From: Escherichia phage HZ2R8
Sequence record: NC_047923.1
Length of the DNA: 39,482 bases
Reading direction: 5' to 3' (one strand)
Shown: positions 10,860 through 37,598 of the stretch, in pieces
Layout of the letters: the number at the start of each line of letters is the position of its first letter
How positions within the stretch are numbered: position 1 is the first letter of the stretch
Translations under genes and position numbers: made by a program
The notes under the pieces: model-generated
Told to the model about the DNA's origin: nothing
Database searches by the model: none
The model's input: only the letters and a program-made list of their open reading frames with translations

Positions 10860-11882
10860 ATGATGAACATTAAGACCAACCCATTTAAAGCAACGTCTTT
10901 CGTAGAGTCTGCCATTAAGAAAGCTCTGGACAACGCTGGGTATCTTATCGCTGACATTAAGTATGATGGTGTACGTGGTAACATCTGCGTAGACAATACT
11001 GCTAACAGTTGCTGGCTCTCTCGTGTATCTAAAACGATTCCGGCACTGGAGCACCTAAACGGATTTGATGCGCGCTGGAAGCGTCTTCTGAATGATGACC
11101 GTTGCTTCTACAAAGATGGCTTTATGTTGGATGGAGAACTCATGGTCAAGGGAGTAGACTTCAACACGGGGTCCGGCATACTGCGTACCAAGTGGACCGA
11201 CACTAAGAACCAAGAGTTCCACGAAGAGTTATTCGTTGAACCAGTCCGTAAGAAAGACAAGGTTCCCTTTAAGCTGCACACTGGGCATCTGTGCGTCAAA
11301 CTGTATGCTATCCTCCCGCTTCACGTTGTAGAGTCTGGAGAAGACTGCGACATCATGACGCTGCTCATGCAGGAACACGTTAAGAACATGCTGCCTCTGC
11401 TACAGGAATACTTCCCTGAAATCGAATGGCAAGCGGCTGAGTCTTACGAGGTTTACGACATGGTGGAACTACAGCAACTGTATGAGAAGAAGCGTGAAGA
11501 AGGCCATGAGGGTCTCATTGTGAAAGACCCCATGGGAATCTATAAGCGAGGTAAGAAGTCCGGCTGGTGGAAGATGAAACCTGAGAACGAGGCTGACGGC
11601 ATTATCCAAGGTCTGGTATGGGGTACGGAGGGTCTGGCTAACGAAGGCAAAGTGATCGGCTTTGAGGTGCTTCTTGAGAGTGGTCGTGTAGTAAACGCCA
11701 CAAACATCTCTCGCGCCTTAATGGACGAGTTCACCAATACCGTAAACATTGAAGGTCGTGACTTCTACAACGGACACGCTTGCCAGATTAGCTACATGGA
11801 GGAAACACCAGACGGCTCTCTGCGTCACCCATCGTTCGTGTGTTTCAGAGGAACTGAGGACAATCCTCAAGAGAAAATTTAA
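10860..11882 (+). CDS. 1.3: ATP-dependent DNA ligase (gp1.3)
   Basis: 340-aa ORF; MMNIKTNPFKA... and the adenylation motif KYDGVRG. Confidence 0.92.
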   Translation: MMNIKTNPFKATSFVESAIKKALDNAGYLIADIKYDGVRGNICVDNTANSCWLSRVSKTIPALEHLNGFDARWKRLLNDDRCFYKDGFMLDGELMVKGVDFNTGSGILRTKWTDTKNQEFHEELFVEPVRKKDKVPFKLHTGHLCVKLYAILPLHVVESGEDCDIMTLLMQEHVKNMLPLLQEYFPEIEWQAAESYEVYDMVELQQLYEKKREEGHEGLIVKDPMGIYKRGKKSGWWKMKPENEADGIIQGLVWGTEGLANEGKVIGFEVLLESGRVVNATNISRALMDEFTNTVNIEGRDFYNGHACQISYMEETPDGSLRHPSFVCFRGTEDNPQEKI

Positions 11883-13936: not shown

Positions 13937-14392
13937 GTGGCTGGCGCATACGCTGCGCGTGGTATCAGAAAGGTCGGGACATTCCGTTCCGGCCTAGAAG
14001 ATAAAGTCTCTAAGCAGCTAGAGGGTAAGGGTATCAAGTTCGACTATGAACTGTGGAAAATCCCTTACGTTGTCCCTGCGAGTAACCATGTCTACACTCC
14101 AGACTTCCTGCTGCCTAACGGAATCTTTATTGAAACCAAAGGTTTATGGGAGAGTGACGACCGAAAGAAACACTTACTGATTCGCGAACAGTTTCCCGAA
14201 CTGGACATCCGTCTGGTATTCTCAAGCTCACGCACCAAGCTGTACAAAGGGTCTCCGACCAGTTACGGTGAGTGGTGCGAGAAGCACGGCATACTGTTTG
14301 CTGACAAATTAATTCCGGTAGAATGGCTCAAAGAACCTAAAAAGGAGGTGCCATTTGACAAGTTAAAGCAATCTAAGGGAGGAAAGAAATAA
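13937..14392 (+). CDS. 3: Endonuclease I (Holliday junction resolvase, gp3)
   Basis: 151-aa ORF starting at GTG; T7 endonuclease I-like throughout. Confidence 0.9.
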   Translation: MAGAYAARGIRKVGTFRSGLEDKVSKQLEGKGIKFDYELWKIPYVVPASNHVYTPDFLLPNGIFIETKGLWESDDRKKHLLIREQFPELDIRLVFSSSRTKLYKGSPTSYGEWCEKHGILFADKLIPVEWLKEPKKEVPFDKLKQSKGGKK

Positions 14393-14847
14393 TGGCTCGT
14401 GTACAGTTTAAACCACGTGAATCTACTGACGCAATCTTTGTCCACTGCTCTGCTACTAAGCCAAGTCAGAATGTAGGTGTCCGTGAGATTCGTCAGTGGC
14501 ATAAAGAGCAAGGTTGGCTTGATGTGGGGTATCACTTTATCATCAAGCGCGATGGTACCGTGGAGGAAGGCCGAGATGAGATGGCTGTGGGTTCTCACGC
14601 CAAGGGTCACAACCATAACTCAATCGGTGTCTGCCTCGTTGGTGGCATTGACGATAAAGGTAAGTTCGAAGCTAACTTTACGCCAGCCCAAATGCAATCC
14701 CTCCGCTCACTGCTTGTCACACTACTGGCTAAGTATAAAGGCGCTGTTCTTCGAGCGCATCACGATGTGGCTCCGAAGGCTTGCCCTTCGTTCGACCTTA
14801 AGCGTTGGTGGGAGACGAACGAACTGGTCACTTCTGACCGTGGCTAA
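14392..14847 (+). CDS. 3.5: Lysozyme / N-acetylmuramoyl-L-alanine amidase (gp3.5, also RNAP inhibitor in T7)
   Basis: 151-aa ORF near-identical to T7 lysozyme. Confidence 0.95.
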   Translation: MARVQFKPRESTDAIFVHCSATKPSQNVGVREIRQWHKEQGWLDVGYHFIIKRDGTVEEGRDEMAVGSHAKGHNHNSIGVCLVGGIDDKGKFEANFTPAQMQSLRSLLVTLLAKYKGAVLRAHHDVAPKACPSFDLKRWWETNELVTSDRG

Positions 14848-14848
14848 T

Positions 14849-14871
14849 TAATTGAACTCACTATAGGGAGA
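14849..14871 (+). promoter_or_regulatory. Phage RNAP promoter phi3.8 (TAATTGAACTCACTATAGGGAGA)
   Basis: Consensus-like; followed by the leader hairpin GGGAGACCACAACGGTTTCCC (14866-14886). Confidence 0.8.
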
Positions 14872-14903
14872 CCACAACGGTTTCCCTTTGTTCGCAACGT
14901 TGA

Positions 14904-16619
<1,716 letters not shown>

Positions 16620-21470: not shown

Positions 21471-21525
21471 ACTCAAGGTCCCTAAATTAATACGACTCAC
21501 TATAGGGAGATAGGGGCCTTTATGA
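21471..21525 (+). promoter_or_regulatory. RNase III-type hairpin (R6.5-like) with the phi6.5 promoter in its loop
   Basis: ACTCAAGGTCCC[...promoter...]AGGGGCCTTTATGATTA. Confidence 0.55.
21488..21510 (+). promoter_or_regulatory. Phage RNAP promoter phi6.5 (perfect consensus), within the loop of an RNase III-type hairpin
   Basis: TAATACGACTCACTATAGGGAGA. Confidence 0.9.
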
Positions 21526-23210: not shown

Positions 23211-24820
23211 TGGCTGAGAAACGAACAGGACTTGCGGAGGATGGCGCAAAGTCTGTCTATGAGCGTTTAAAGAACGACCGTGCGCCTTATGAGACGCGTG
23301 CCCAGAATTGCGCTCAATATACCATCCCATCATTGTTCCCTAAGGACTCCGATAACGCCTCTACAGACTACACAACTCCGTGGCAAGCCGTGGGTGCTCG
23401 TGGTCTAAACAATCTAGCATCTAAGCTCATGCTGGCCCTGTTCCCGATGCAGACTTGGATGCGACTTACTATATCTGAATATGAAGCAAAGCAGCTACTG
23501 AGTGACCCAGATGGACTCGCTAAGGTTGATGAGGGCCTCTCAATGGTAGAGCGCATCATTATGAACTACATTGAGTCTAACAGCTACCGAGTGACACTCT
23601 TTGAGGCTCTCAAGCAGTTAGTCGTTGCTGGTAACGTCCTGCTGTACCTACCGGAACCAGAAGGGTCGAACTATAATCCCATGAAGCTGTACCGATTGTC
23701 TTCTTATGTGGTCCAACGAGACGCATTCGGCAACGTTCTGCAAATGGTGACTCGCGACCAGATAGCTTTCGGGGCACTCCCTGAGGATGTCCGTAAGGCT
23801 GTAGAAGGCCAAGGTGGTGAGAAGAAACCTGATGAGACCATTGATGTGTACACTCACGTCTATCTGGACGAAGAATCAGGAGAGTATCTCCGCTACGAAG
23901 AGGTTGAAGGTATGGAAATTCAAGGCTCCGATGGGTCTTACCCTAAAGAGGCTTGTCCGTACATCCCGATTCGAATGGTTCGACTAGATGGTGAATCATA
24001 CGGTCGTTCGTACATTGAGGAATACTTAGGCGACTTACGGTCCCTTGAGAATCTCCAAGAGGCTATCGTTAAGATGTCCATGATTAGCTCTAAGGTTATC
24101 GGCTTAGTGAACCCTGCTGGTATTACCCAGCCACGCCGACTGACTAAAGCTCAGACTGGTGACTTCGTTACAGGTCGCCCAGAAGACATCTCGTTCCTAC
24201 AATTGGAGAAGCAAGCGGACTTTACTGTGGCTAAGGCAGTCAGTGACGCTATCGAGGCTCGCCTTTCGTTTGCCTTTATGTTGAACTCTGCGGTTCAGCG
24301 CACTGGTGAACGTGTGACCGCCGAAGAGATTCGGTACGTTGCGTCAGAACTTGAAGACACTTTGGGTGGTGTCTACTCAATCCTTTCTCAAGAATTACAA
24401 TTGCCTCTGGTACGAGTGCTCTTGAAGCAACTGCAAGCCACGCAACAGATTCCTGAGTTACCTAAGGAAGCCGTAGAGCCGACCATTAGTACAGGTCTGG
24501 AAGCAATCGGTCGTGGTCAAGACCTAGATAAGCTGGAACGTTGTGTCTCTGCATGGGCTGCTCTGGCCCCTATGCGTGATGACCCAGACATTAACCTTGC
24601 GATGATTAAGTTACGCATTGCCAACGCTATCGGTATTGACACTTCTGGCATCCTTCTTACCGAAGAGCAGAAGCAACAGAAGATGGCTCAACAGTCTGTG
24701 CAAATGGGTATGGACAATGGTGCTGCTGCGCTTGGTCAAGGTATGGCTGCACAGGCTACAGCTTCACCTGAGGCTATGGCTGCTGCCGCTGATTCCGTAG
24801 GTTTACAGCCGGGAATTTAA
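23210..24820 (+). CDS. 8: Portal (head-tail connector) protein (gp8)
   Basis: ATG at 23210 gives 536 aa MAEKRTGLAEDGAKSVYERL..., near-identical to T7 gp8; ORF-track start 23195 is upstream. Confidence 0.95.
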   Translation: MAEKRTGLAEDGAKSVYERLKNDRAPYETRAQNCAQYTIPSLFPKDSDNASTDYTTPWQAVGARGLNNLASKLMLALFPMQTWMRLTISEYEAKQLLSDPDGLAKVDEGLSMVERIIMNYIESNSYRVTLFEALKQLVVAGNVLLYLPEPEGSNYNPMKLYRLSSYVVQRDAFGNVLQMVTRDQIAFGALPEDVRKAVEGQGGEKKPDETIDVYTHVYLDEESGEYLRYEEVEGMEIQGSDGSYPKEACPYIPIRMVRLDGESYGRSYIEEYLGDLRSLENLQEAIVKMSMISSKVIGLVNPAGITQPRRLTKAQTGDFVTGRPEDISFLQLEKQADFTVAKAVSDAIEARLSFAFMLNSAVQRTGERVTAEEIRYVASELEDTLGGVYSILSQELQLPLVRVLLKQLQATQQIPELPKEAVEPTISTGLEAIGRGQDLDKLERCVSAWAALAPMRDDPDINLAMIKLRIANAIGIDTSGILLTEEQKQQKMAQQSVQMGMDNGAAALGQGMAAQATASPEAMAAAADSVGLQPGI

Positions 24821-24840
24821 TACGACTCACTATAGGGAGA
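24818..24840 (+). promoter_or_regulatory. Phage RNAP promoter phi9 (perfect consensus)
   Basis: TAATACGACTCACTATAGGGAGA; overlaps the gene 8 stop. Confidence 0.9.
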
Positions 24841-24925
24841 CCATCCAGATTGAGTGAGGTCTGGTCTCAAGGTTCGAGTCCTTGGGTGTCCCTTAGTTCT
24901 TTAAATTGGAATGGAGATAACAATA

Positions 24926-25862: not shown

Positions 25863-25885
25863 TAATACGACTCACTATAGGGAGA
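25863..25885 (+). promoter_or_regulatory. Phage RNAP promoter phi10 (perfect consensus) with leader hairpin 25880-25900
   Basis: TAATACGACTCACTATAGGGAGA followed by GGGAGACCACAAAGGTTTCCC. Confidence 0.92.
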
Positions 25886-25947
25886 CCACAAAGGTTTCCC
25901 TCTAGAAATCATTCTTTGTTTAACTTTCTTAAGAAGGAGACATACAT

Positions 25948-26982
25948 ATGGCTAACATGACTGGTGGACAGCAACTGGGTACTAACCAAGGTAAAGGTGT
26001 AGTTGCTGCTGGTGATAAACTGGCGCTGTTCTTGAAGGTATTTGGCGGTGAAGTCCTGACTGCATTCGCTCGTACCTCCGTGACTACCTCTCGTCACATG
26101 GTCCGCTCCATCTCCAGCGGCAAATCTGCTCAGTTCCCTGTTCTGGGTCGCACTCAGGCAGCGTATCTGGCACCGGGTGAGAACCTCGACGATAAACGAA
26201 AAGACATCAAGCACACCGAGAAGGTCATCACCATTGATGGTCTCCTGACGGCTGACGTTCTGATTTACGATATTGAGGATGCTATGAACCACTACGACGT
26301 TCGCTCTGAGTATACCTCTCAGTTGGGTGAATCTCTGGCGATGGCTGCGGATGGTGCGGTTCTGGCTGAAATTGCTGGCCTGTGTAACGTGGAAAGCCAA
26401 TATGACGAGAACATTGAGGGCCTCGGTACTGCTACAGTAATTGAGACAACTCAGGAAAAGTCTGACCTTACCGACCAAGTTGCGCTGGGTAAGGAGATTA
26501 TTGCGGCTCTGACCAAGGCTCGTGCGGCTCTGACCAAGAACTACGTTCCGGCTGCTGACCGTGTGTTCTACTGTGACCCAGATAGCTACTCTGCGATTCT
26601 GGCAGCACTGATGCCTAATGCTGCAAACTACGCTGCACTGATTGACCCTGAGAAGGGTTCTATCCGCAACGTTATGGATTTTGAGGTTGTAGAAGTTCCT
26701 CACCTCACCGCTGGTGGCGCTGGTACTACTCGCGAGGGTACTACCGGTCAGAAGCACGCCTTCCCTGCCACTAAGAGTGGTAACGACAAGGTGGCTAAAG
26801 ACAACGTTATCGGCCTGTTCATGCATCGTTCTGCGGTTGGTACTGTGAAGCTGCGTGACTTGGCTCTGGAACGTGCTCGTCGAGCTAACTTCCAAGCGGA
26901 CCAGATTATCGCTAAGTACGCAATGGGCCACGGTGGTCTTCGCCCAGAAGCTGCTGGTGCAGTGGTTTTCAAAGCGGGGTAA
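25948..26982 (+). CDS. 10A: Major capsid protein 10A
   Basis: 344-aa ORF after phi10 and its leader hairpin; AAGGAG SD; near-identical to T7 gp10A. Confidence 0.97.
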   Translation: MANMTGGQQLGTNQGKGVVAAGDKLALFLKVFGGEVLTAFARTSVTTSRHMVRSISSGKSAQFPVLGRTQAAYLAPGENLDDKRKDIKHTEKVITIDGLLTADVLIYDIEDAMNHYDVRSEYTSQLGESLAMAADGAVLAEIAGLCNVESQYDENIEGLGTATVIETTQEKSDLTDQVALGKEIIAALTKARAALTKNYVPAADRVFYCDPDSYSAILAALMPNAANYAALIDPEKGSIRNVMDFEVVEVPHLTAGGAGTTREGTTGQKHAFPATKSGNDKVAKDNVIGLFMHRSAVGTVKLRDLALERARRANFQADQIIAKYAMGHGGLRPEAAGAVVFKAG

Positions 26983-36500: not shown

Positions 36501-37526
36501 GAACTAGCTGCTCGCTCTCCGTGGACTAAGCTGCTTAATGGAACCACTAACTATCTTCTGGATGCTGCGCGTCAAGGTATGCTTGGGGACGTTATTAGTG
36601 CTACCCTATCTGGGAAGACTACCCGTTGGGAGAAGGAAGGATTCCTCCGTGGCGCGTCAGTTACACCTGAGCAGATGAAAGGAATCAAGGCACTCATTAA
36701 GGAACACATGGTGCGTGGTGAGGATGGTAAGTATACCGTTAAGGATAAGCACGCGTTCTCTATGGACCCAAGGGCTATGGACTTATGGCGACTGGCTGAC
36801 AAGGTAGCTGACGAGGCAATGCTGCGTCCGCATAAGGTGTCCTTACAGGATTCACATGCGTTCGGAGCATTAGGTAAGATGGTGATGCAGTTTAAGTCTT
36901 TCACCATTAAATCCCTTAACTCTAAGTTTCTGCGAACCTTCTACGATGGGTACAAGAACAACCGAGCGATTGACGCTGCGCTGACTGGTATCATCTCTAT
37001 GGGTCTCGCTGGTGGTTACTACGCTATGGCTGCACACGTCAAAGCGTATGGAATGCCTAAGGAGAAACGTAAAGAATACTTGGAGCGTGCATTGGACCCA
37101 ACCATGATTGCCCACGCTTCGTTGTCTCGTAGTTCTCAATTAGGTGCTCCTTTGGCTATGGCTGACCTAGTTGGTGGCCTGTTCGGGGTTGAGTCCTCAA
37201 AGATGGCTCGCTCTACGATTCTGCCTAAAGACACCATGAGGGAGCGTGACCCTAATAAGCCTTATACCTCGTGGGAGGTAATGGGTAATATGGGTTCCAA
37301 CATTCTTGAACAGATGCCATCGGCTGGATTTGTGGCTAACGTTGGGGCTTCCCTACTTAATACTGCTGGCGTGGTGAATGCTCCTAACAAAGCCACTGAG
37401 CAGGACTTCATGACTGGTCTCATGAACTCCACAAAAGAGTTAGTACCAAACGACCCATTGACGCAACAGCTTGTGTTGAAGATTTATGAGGCGAATGGTG
37501 TTAACTTGAGGGAGCGTCGGAAATAA
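33570..37526 (+). CDS. 16: Internal virion protein D (gp16) with N-terminal lytic transglycosylase domain
   Basis: 1318-aa ORF; N-terminal SLT-like motif region (...TESRFQP...GPLGMMQF...AYNQGEG); same length as T7 gp16. Confidence 0.95.
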   Translation: MDKYDKNVPSEYDGLFQKAADANGVSYDLLRKVAWTESRFQPTAKSKTGPLGMMQFTKATAKAMGLRVTDGPDDDRLNPELAINAAAKHLAGLVGKFDGDELKAALAYNQGEGRLGNPQLEAYSKGDFSSISEEGRNYLRNLLDVAKSPMSGQLEAFGGITPKGKGIPADVGLAGIGHKQKVTQELPESTSFDVKGIEQEAPAKPFAKDFWETHGETLDEYNSRSTFFGFKDAAEAELSNSVAGMAFRAGRLDNGFDVFKDTITPTRWNSHIWTPEELEKIRTEVKNPAYINVVTGGSPENLDELIKLANENFEADLRKSEAGLGAQLSAGIIGAGVDPLSYVPMVGVTGKGFKLINKALVVGAESAALNVASEGLRTSVAGGDSDYAGAALGGFVFGAGMSAISDAIAAGLKRGKPEAEFDNEFIGPMMRMEARETARNANSADLSRINTENMKFEGEYKGVPYEELPTEKGAVVLHDGSILSASNPINPKTLKEFSEVDPEKAARGIKLAGFTEIGLKTLGSDDADIRRVAIDLVRSPTGMQSGSSGKYGSTASDIFEKLRGTDQRTYNDLYKAMSDAMKDPEFSTGGAKMSREEARYTIERRVALAIENPELQKALTPNERIVMDIVKRHYDTKRELMENPAVFGNTKAVSIFPESRHKGTYVPHVYDKYAKALKLQRYGAEGLQEGIARSWMCSYDLRPAVKARIDEALKEMHGVEEVTHDMVYKYAMDKAYGISHSDRFTNSSIIEENIEGLVGIENNSFLEARNLFDSDLAITMPDGEQFSVNDLRDFSMFRIMPAYDRRINGDIAIMGSTGKTTKELKDEILALKAKAEGDGKKTGEVHALMDTVKILTGRARRNQDTVWETSLRAINDLGFFAKNAYMGAQNLTEIAGMIATGNMRALGHGIPILRDTLYKSKPVSAKELKELHSALFGKEVDQLIRPQRADIVQRLREATDTGPVVANIVGTLKYSTQELAARSPWTKLLNGTTNYLLDAARQGMLGDVISATLSGKTTRWEKEGFLRGASVTPEQMKGIKALIKEHMVRGEDGKYTVKDKHAFSMDPRAMDLWRLADKVADEAMLRPHKVSLQDSHAFGALGKMVMQFKSFTIKSLNSKFLRTFYDGYKNNRAIDAALTGIISMGLAGGYYAMAAHVKAYGMPKEKRKEYLERALDPTMIAHASLSRSSQLGAPLAMADLVGGLFGVESSKMARSTILPKDTMRERDPNKPYTSWEVMGNMGSNILEQMPSAGFVANVGASLLNTAGVVNAPNKATEQDFMTGLMNSTKELVPNDPLTQQLVLKIYEANGVNLRERRK

Positions 37527-37546
37527 TACGACTCACTATAGGGAGA
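37524..37546 (+). promoter_or_regulatory. Phage RNAP promoter phi17 (perfect consensus)
   Basis: TAATACGACTCACTATAGGGAGA; overlaps the gene 16 stop. Confidence 0.9.
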
Positions 37547-37598
37547 GGCGAAAGAATCTTCTCCCTGTAGTCTCTTAGATTTAATTTAAGGAGGTCAA

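Follow-up and report, generated by a model that had tools for sequence, protein, structure and literature searches.

Why should two promoters of one phage, one ahead of the primase gene and the other ahead of the capsid gene, begin their transcripts with nearly the same 21-nt hairpin? The question arose from a sequence-only reading of the stretch of DNA analysed here (39,482 nucleotides, referred to as the window), which saw a common 5' stem-loop on two messages and proposed that it is an element of mRNA stability or translation control. The window is the complete genome of a T7-group phage, with phage EG1 as its closest relative (97%), and holds 16 T7-type promoters at five or fewer mismatches. 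The two promoters in question lie at places homologous to those where phi3.8 and phi10 are annotated in T7 (Table 1).

Searching and folding the window bears out the original description of the pair in each detail, from the 21-mers and their coordinates to the 8-bp stem with its G-U pair, the 5-nt loop and the single loop difference. Copy 1 is GGGAGACCACAACGGTTTCCC and copy 2 is GGGAGACCACAAAGGTTTCCC; with up to 3 mismatches allowed, these are the only two matches in the window, against a chance expectation of 0.01, and two matches were reached in 0 of 100 shuffles. They differ solely at hairpin position 13, the last base of the loop, which is C at 14878 and A at 25892. Each copy is predicted to fold as ((((((((.....)))))))) at -12.2 kcal/mol, accounting for 97% of the ensemble, with GGTTTCCC as the 3' arm and one G5-U17 pair in the stem. 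The z-scores of these folds are -4.85 (copy 1) and -4.42 (copy 2), and an equal fold was found in 0 of 200 shuffles. Given initiation at the consensus +1, nucleotide 1 is paired in the predicted fold of both copies. An Rfam scan of the whole window matched no family at gathering score.

Table 1. Positions in the window of the genes, promoters and leader structures at phi3.8, phi9, phi10 and phi17.
Feature	Position	Strand	Description
Gene 3	13937-14392		Upstream of phi3.8 promoter
Gene 3.5, lysozyme/amidase	14392..14847	+	ORF and annotation of similar sequences; upstream of phi3.8 promoter
Extended bipartite stem-loop, predicted in read-through RNA	~14845..14906	+	Homologous to R3.8; fold -20.1 kcal/mol
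phi3.8-type T7 RNA polymerase promoter	14849..14871	+	TAATTGAACTCACTATAGGGAGA; +1 = 14866; 3 mismatches to T7 consensus
Hairpin copy 1	14866..14886	+	GGGAGACC-ACAAC-GGUUUCCC; 5' end of phi3.8-initiated gene 4 message and putative apex of R3.8-type stem-loop
Gene 4, primase/helicase	14919..16619	+	First gene on phi3.8-initiated message; Shine-Dalgarno AAGGA 14906-14910
phi9 leader domain	24835..24892	+	GGGAGACC pairs with GGUGUCCC around ~40-nt insert, closing on +1; promoter 24818-24840
phi10 promoter	25863..25885	+	TAATACGACTCACTATA then GGGAGA; perfect T7 consensus match; +1 = 25880
Hairpin copy 2	25880..25900	+	GGGAGACC-ACAAA-GGUUUCCC; 5' end of capsid (gene 10) message
Gene 10, major capsid protein	25948..26982	+	Shine-Dalgarno AAGGAG 25934-25939
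phi17 (tail-fibre) leader hairpin	37541..37565	+	GGGAGAGG-CGAAAGAAU-CUUCUCCC; -10.3 kcal/mol, closes on nt 1; promoter 37524-37546

The first six transcribed bases (+1 to +6, GGGAGA) are common to other late promoters in the window, and the leaders of these promoters diverge past +6. The identity of the two hairpins over +7 to +21 therefore does not come from the promoter consensus, which we reject as its cause. The phi3.8 promoter reads TAATTGAACTCACTATA followed by GGGAGA, and has a non-consensus TGA at -13 to -11 where the consensus has ACG. T7 itself carries the same pair of hairpins, GGGAGACCACAGCGGTTTCCC at phi3.8 (loop ACAGC) and GGGAGACCACAACGGTTTCCC at phi10 (loop ACAAC). Both elements are thus already known from T7, and the window is another T7-group genome carrying them, with small differences from T7 in the loop base at phi10, a T at -2 of phi3.8 and the absence of gene 3.8.

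Each 21-mer begins at the +1 of a T7-type promoter, so that the notion of a common 5' stem-loop on two transcripts holds. The name given to the first of these transcripts, the lysozyme/primase message, is right for only one of its two genes. Primase is the first gene on it; the lysozyme gene ends 2 nt before the phi3.8 promoter and is therefore off the phi3.8-initiated RNA. On the lysozyme message the hairpin would come last, at the 3' end, and not at the 5' end. With gene 3.8 absent from the window, gene 4 comes directly after the phi3.8 promoter; in T7 gene 3.8 encodes an HNH endonuclease, and positions 14848-14918 of the window are without it. At the lysozyme/promoter/gene 4 junction, relatives have either gene 3.8, a different small ORF, or an additional ORF that separates lysozyme from the promoter, and because the ORFs carried there differ, the junction looks like a mosaic hot spot at which the hairpin has been kept. 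At the second promoter, the phi10 start lies 68 nt upstream of the capsid gene.

On its sequence, we identify the phi10 copy as the published 21-nt gene 10 leader stabilising stem-loop. The T7 structure follows the same promoter, occupies the same +1 to +21, has an 8-bp stem with a G-U pair, precedes the same capsid gene and is identical to copy 2 at 20 of 21 bases; the difference is in the loop, which is ACAAA in this phage and ACAAC in T7 (ACAGC or AUAAC in other relatives). The element is a standard part of T7 expression vectors and has been retained in the pET series. A 21-bp phi10 fragment with the 8-bp stem-loop gave 4-fold more GFP, and has been described as a 'well characterized' stabiliser with reference to Mertens, Remaut and Fiers 1996 and Rosenberg et al. 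1987 (PMC2254391). In another host, removing or adding the T7g10 stem-loop changed output 1.5- to 3.6-fold and changed mRNA abundance, with gains of 1.5- to 3-fold in reporter and a higher mRNA level (PMC6146998). The stabilising effect also transfers to E. coli and C. necator promoters read by host RNA polymerase. The mRNA-stabilising role that had been named for T7 phi10 is established in the literature (PMC2254391, PMC6146998).

Protection has been ascribed to keeping RNase E from the 5' end, in parallel with the ompA and T7 gene 10 mRNAs (PMC2254391), and with its nucleotide 1 paired the hairpin has the structure that such 5'-end protection requires. Like stabilisers of the ompA 5' UTR type (Emory and Belasco, cited in PMC2254391), it is a stable hairpin with no unpaired 5' nucleotides, and the sequence independence that these have in principle fits the many differing closing helices found in relatives. 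Unlike them, it has a 5' arm set by the phage polymerase start GGGAGA, and at three T7-group promoters the stem runs upstream of the start site. As a separate candidate, a lower stem of the RNase III type at phi10 was not supported, since T7 can form CGAAAUUA/UAAUUUUG and the window and most relatives cannot.

The phi3.8 copy appears to have a second identity, as part of the RNase III site R3.8. This site has reportedly been on the T7 map since 1983, through the work of Dunn and Studier. The T7 cut reportedly falls at 11203, about +24 (Dunn and Studier 1983), which would be at the junction of the two stems and opposite the bulge. R3.8 is annotated on homologous sequence in the records of T7.1, Yersinia phage R and phiYeO3-12 (DQ100055, JX000007 and NC_001271), as the stem_loop RSL_R3.8 in T7.1 and as a putative R3.8 stem-loop in phiYeO3-12; the feature tables of T7 RefSeq, V01146, phiA1122 and 13a list phi3.8 and do not list R3.8. 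The annotation in Yersinia phage R covers 49 nt, TAATTGAACTCACTAAAGGGAGACCACAACGGTTTCCCTTTGTTCGCATT, and about 45 of 49 bases of the window site match the 49-nt R3.8 stem-loops of T7.1 and Yersinia phage R. As in T7, the structure comes directly after gene 3.5 and overlaps promoter phi3.8. By sequence homology, then, the phi3.8 copy is the top of a stem-loop corresponding to R3.8, and by analogy with T7 it would also act in read-through RNA as a processing signal, a role that the sequence-only reading missed.

In T7, R3.8 is a strong RNase III cleavage site (PMC5592923); the cut comes after the phi3.8 start, and read depth drops past the cut (PMC6938266). Since T7 can grow in hosts without RNase III (PMC6938266), processing is not essential. 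The T7.1 record places a putative R3.8 cut on the same base as the phi3.8 start (DQ100055 3005; locus L005 258), a position which is at odds with a start upstream of the cut (PMC6938266) and is probably a placeholder.

The read-through RNA of the window is predicted to share the architecture of T7 R3.8, in which the promoter core forms an asymmetric loop between a lower stem and an upper stem topped by the 21-nt hairpin. In the predicted fold, the lower stem pairs 14845-14857 with 14890-14894 and 14899-14906 and includes GAAC/GUUC among further pairs, the asymmetric internal loop corresponds to 14858-14864, and the upper stem pairs 14865-14873 with 14879-14887, the hairpin being lengthened by promoter bases that pair with the U's following it. 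The fold is only modestly better than shuffles (z = -1.84) and has a U-U mismatch in the upper-stem extension. Upper stem, asymmetric loop and lower stem are also present in the read-through folds of T7 and 20 relatives, where the lower stem uses differing partners in differing lineages. In the window, GAAC is complementary to GUUC because TGA replaces the consensus ACG at -13 to -11, which suggests, we infer, that promoter strength has been traded for an RNA stem at phi3.8.

The site departs from T7 R3.8 at promoter base -2 (14864), which is T in the window, EG1 and HZP2 (TATA) where T7 and most relatives have TAAA; the U-U mismatch in the upper stem follows from this T in place of A. The phi3.8 region of the window is identical to T7 phi10 from -9 to +22, and the T at -2 could have come by exchange with phi10, or could have been selected because it strengthens the promoter. 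The other departure is in the 3' strand of the lower stem, which is GUUGAUUA by the gene 4 ribosome-binding site, not GCAUU, because gene 3.8 is absent.

The reading we favour, at a probability of roughly 75%, is that a hairpin built on the obligatory GGGAGA start serves as a 5'-end protector in promoter-initiated RNA and as the R3.8 RNase III site in phi3.8 read-through RNA. RNA begun at phi10 or at phi3.8 would have its first nucleotide paired and no single-stranded 5' tail, and the paired end would block attack via the RppH/RNase E pathway, giving the mRNA a longer life. Such protection has been shown experimentally for T7 phi10; it would be expected at phi10 of the window from the 20/21 identity, and in phi3.8-initiated RNA from the identical stem. 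In phi3.8 read-through RNA the stem would run on into promoter bases -6 to -1 and then into the lower stem, making a bipartite helix of about 20 bp or more. A cut on the 3' side just past the hairpin would give the lysozyme-bearing RNA a 3' end protected by the hairpin, and the gene 4 RNA freed by the same cut would begin with an unprotected 5' monophosphate. The site has been documented in T7, and the present analysis adds its conservation and geometry; cleavage in this phage is what we infer. RNA initiated at phi3.8 is without the 5' strand of the lower stem; for this reason it should not be cut by RNase III and should stay capped by the hairpin at its 5' end.

The original proposal of a common stability or translation element stands on the side of stability, through the literature on phi10. 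Direct translational control of gene 4 and gene 10 by the hairpin seems to us highly improbable, as 19 nt (gene 4) and 33 nt (gene 10) separate the hairpins from the Shine-Dalgarno sequences downstream, the ribosome-binding sites are outside the hairpin in the folded leaders, and the effect has been ascribed to RNA stability (PMC2254391, PMC6146998). What speaks for a link to translation is that, in uncut read-through RNA, the gene 4 Shine-Dalgarno sequence begins where the lower stem's 3' strand (14899-14906) ends, so that an RNase III cut could indirectly free the gene 4 ribosome-binding site.

We compared loci anchored on the flanking genes (lysozyme or capsid) and not on the hairpin itself. 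A hairpin closing on the +1 of the following promoter is present in 78 of 79 lysozyme-anchored loci, and its upstream extension is kept along with it, with compensatory changes, in 78 of 79. At least seven stem variants occur at phi3.8: GGGAGACC/GGUUUCCC, GGGAGACU/GGUUUCCC and GGGAGAC/GUUUCCC, then GGGAUGAC(C)/(G)GUUGUCCC with a paired U-G insertion, GGGAUAAC/GUUGUCCC, GGAGGACC/GGUUUCUCC and GGAGAGCC/GGUUUCUCC. In every phi3.8 group, the 6 nt on the 3' side of the hairpin pair with promoter bases -1 to -6; in the KP32-like phages the pair -2:+23 has switched from A-U to C-G, and the tail is UGUUGU.

MAFFT with RNAalifold mis-registered stems that differ by indels and recovered only 6 pairs, and was replaced by a tally anchored on the hairpin base and by a covariance-model alignment. 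The model was built from seven ungapped hairpin variants and found 78 sites. In the resulting alignment 91.7% of cells were paired, compared to 44-58% with slid partners, and three pairs, including -2:+23, change on both sides. The covariation score was 0.176 versus 0.066 and was reached by 0 of 500 shuffles, in an alignment that is fitted to the structure model and has few strict double-sided substitutions, because the 5' arm is fixed by the promoter. The phi3.8 site of the window scores 64 bits, and the phi10 site 26.5 bits over model positions 7-29 only. In lineages with TATT and TATG promoters the -1 and -2 pairs are lost without compensation and UUUGUUCGC is still conserved; because the pairs are lost while the motif is kept, part of the apparent extension could reflect another constraint on UUUGUUCGC.

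At phi3.8, the GC-rich 8-bp stem followed by UUUGUU, with 5 U in 6 nt and a tail conserved as UUUGUUCGC in most lineages, resembles an intrinsic terminator or attenuator that would act on RNA from upstream or on the promoter's own transcripts, and GGGAGACCTTAACGGTTTCCC, the homologous hairpin of Yersinia phage fPS-9, was marked as a terminator by its depositors (LT960606 9108-9128; L223 138-158). We hold termination at phi3.8 to be distinctly unlikely. A terminator scan called neither hairpin site, and the U's are predicted to be paired with promoter A's in read-through RNA. In the KP32-like phages, moreover, the tail weakens the U-tract yet restores pairing with the C at -2 and -5. Expression of gene 4 and of the class II genes after it depends on transcription that arrives from promoters upstream, and the phi10 copy is followed by UCUAGA, with no U-tract. 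The fPS-9 hairpin starts at the +1 of the depositors' own annotated promoter.

At phi10 the comparison gives a different picture. Among the capsid-anchored loci, only those of the T7 group have the compact T7-type hairpin (12 loci), and in one T7-group genome it is replaced by a different closing domain. In phages outside the T7 group, the GGGAG at the 5' end finds its CUCCC partner 22-97 nt downstream, with an unrelated, highly variable insert between the two; this closing helix has no extension upstream of +1, and the flanks of the leader structure do not pair. In 48 of 720 trials a shuffled phi10 leader closed with at least the energy observed. Alignment across relatives, which had been put forward as a check, therefore finds that +1-closing helices are kept at both sites, and that exact reuse of one hairpin is a trait of the T7 group (12 of 13 paired genomes, and not in other genera) rather than a general shared element. 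What selection maintains at phi10 is, to judge from the sequences, the sequestering of the transcript's own 5' end, whereas the conserved structure at phi3.8 includes bases that are present only in read-through RNA. The two near-identical hairpins would then stand under different selective regimes, set by read-through RNA at phi3.8 and by the promoter-initiated 5' end at phi10.

The confinement of exact reuse to the T7 group also bears on whether the shared sequence might be a functionless remnant, left in the T7 lineage when a promoter was duplicated or when phi3.8 and phi10 recombined ectopically. The identity of the window's phi3.8 region with T7 phi10, and the fact that the loop variants ACAAC and ACAGC turn up at phi3.8 in some phages and at phi10 in others, could be read in the same sense. 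It is indeed plausible that both copies go back to one ancestral sequence in the T7 group, and such an origin is compatible with function. That they are without function is very unlikely indeed, as the effect of the phi10 hairpin has been measured, the loops drift independently while the stems stay intact, and genera in which the sequences have changed still close a helix on +1 at each of the two sites, with compensatory changes. The loops vary independently inside single genomes, and strict concerted evolution of the pair was rejected on this ground. It is a possibility that ectopic recombination supplied the T7-group phi10 hairpin as a copy of the R3.8 apex.

The same design recurs at phi17 and phi9. 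T7 has the same phi17 leader hairpin. The six bases that follow it (UGUAGU) pair 6/6 with promoter bases -6 to -1 to give a 14-bp read-through stem, in T7 as in the window, and no RNase III site is annotated at this hairpin. The closing structure at phi9 spans 58 nt (-23.5 kcal/mol) and is matched by the covariance model at 24828-24901 (21.3 bits, E = 0.0013); its arms are followed by UUAGUUC, resembling the UUUGUUC after the phi3.8 hairpin. At tail-fibre promoters of very diverse relatives, which have other start sequences, the hairpins are complementary to their own first bases. Pairing with promoter bases -6 to -1 is found for 5/6 positions at T7 phi3.8, 4/6 at phi3.8 of the window, 4/6 at phi10 and 6/6 at phi17. 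This raises the possibility that such pairing makes the T7-group late hairpins halves of longer stems, serving as punctuation or processing sites or as blocks to 3' exonucleases in read-through RNA, with phi10 and phi17 as undescribed counterparts of R3.8; we regard this wider role as unlikely.

That the stem uses the very first transcribed bases at all four of these promoters, and that the 3' arm tracks its own initial transcribed sequence in diverse phages, could instead indicate that the hairpin mainly serves transcription. Here, it would fold on exit from T7 RNA polymerase and pull the G-rich 5' end off the template, aiding promoter clearance and preventing R-loops or re-annealing, and G-rich abortive or initial transcripts from T7 promoters are known to pair with C+U stretches (PMC2952870). 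We find such a function doubtful. T7 polymerase is not needed for the effect, which transfers to host-polymerase promoters; in the Klebsiella phages the closing arm lies up to 97 nt downstream, too late to help; and several strong promoters, for example phi6.5 at 21488, are without such a hairpin. Protection of the 5' end, with RNase III processing of the read-through RNA at phi3.8, remains the reading we prefer.

The result has little significance beyond confirmation, and what is useful in it lies in the corrections and the context. Closing the first transcribed bases into a helix emerges as a general habit of phage-polymerase late promoters across the Autographiviridae, and helices that close on +1 can be an aid in placing promoters, the ends of transcripts and RNase III sites when new T7-like genomes are annotated.

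Two further observations were made in the leaders of relatives. In Klebsiella phages (L116-L166), the helix GGGAG...CUCCC that closes the phi10 leader is conserved, with UUCGAGUUACACAAUGAG after it, and the inserts inside this helix, about 30 to 90 nt long, are unrelated even where the phages are close relatives, a hypervariable cassette in a conserved clamp. In many KP32-like Klebsiella phages, a tRNA-like cloverleaf of about 70 nt stands about 35 nt after the phi3.8-type hairpin (L037 1421-1488; also at loci L033, L041, L046, L055, L056, L062, L063, L065, L068, L081 and L084). ARAGORN calls no tRNA in this cloverleaf, and Rfam matches its T-arm only (tmRNA, 9.7 bits). It has the acceptor stem UGGUCAG/CUGACCA and a perfect T-arm, CGGGUUCGAUUCCCG, followed by CACCA, and it folds at -28.4 kcal/mol (z = -2.7); sister phages have a small ORF in its place.
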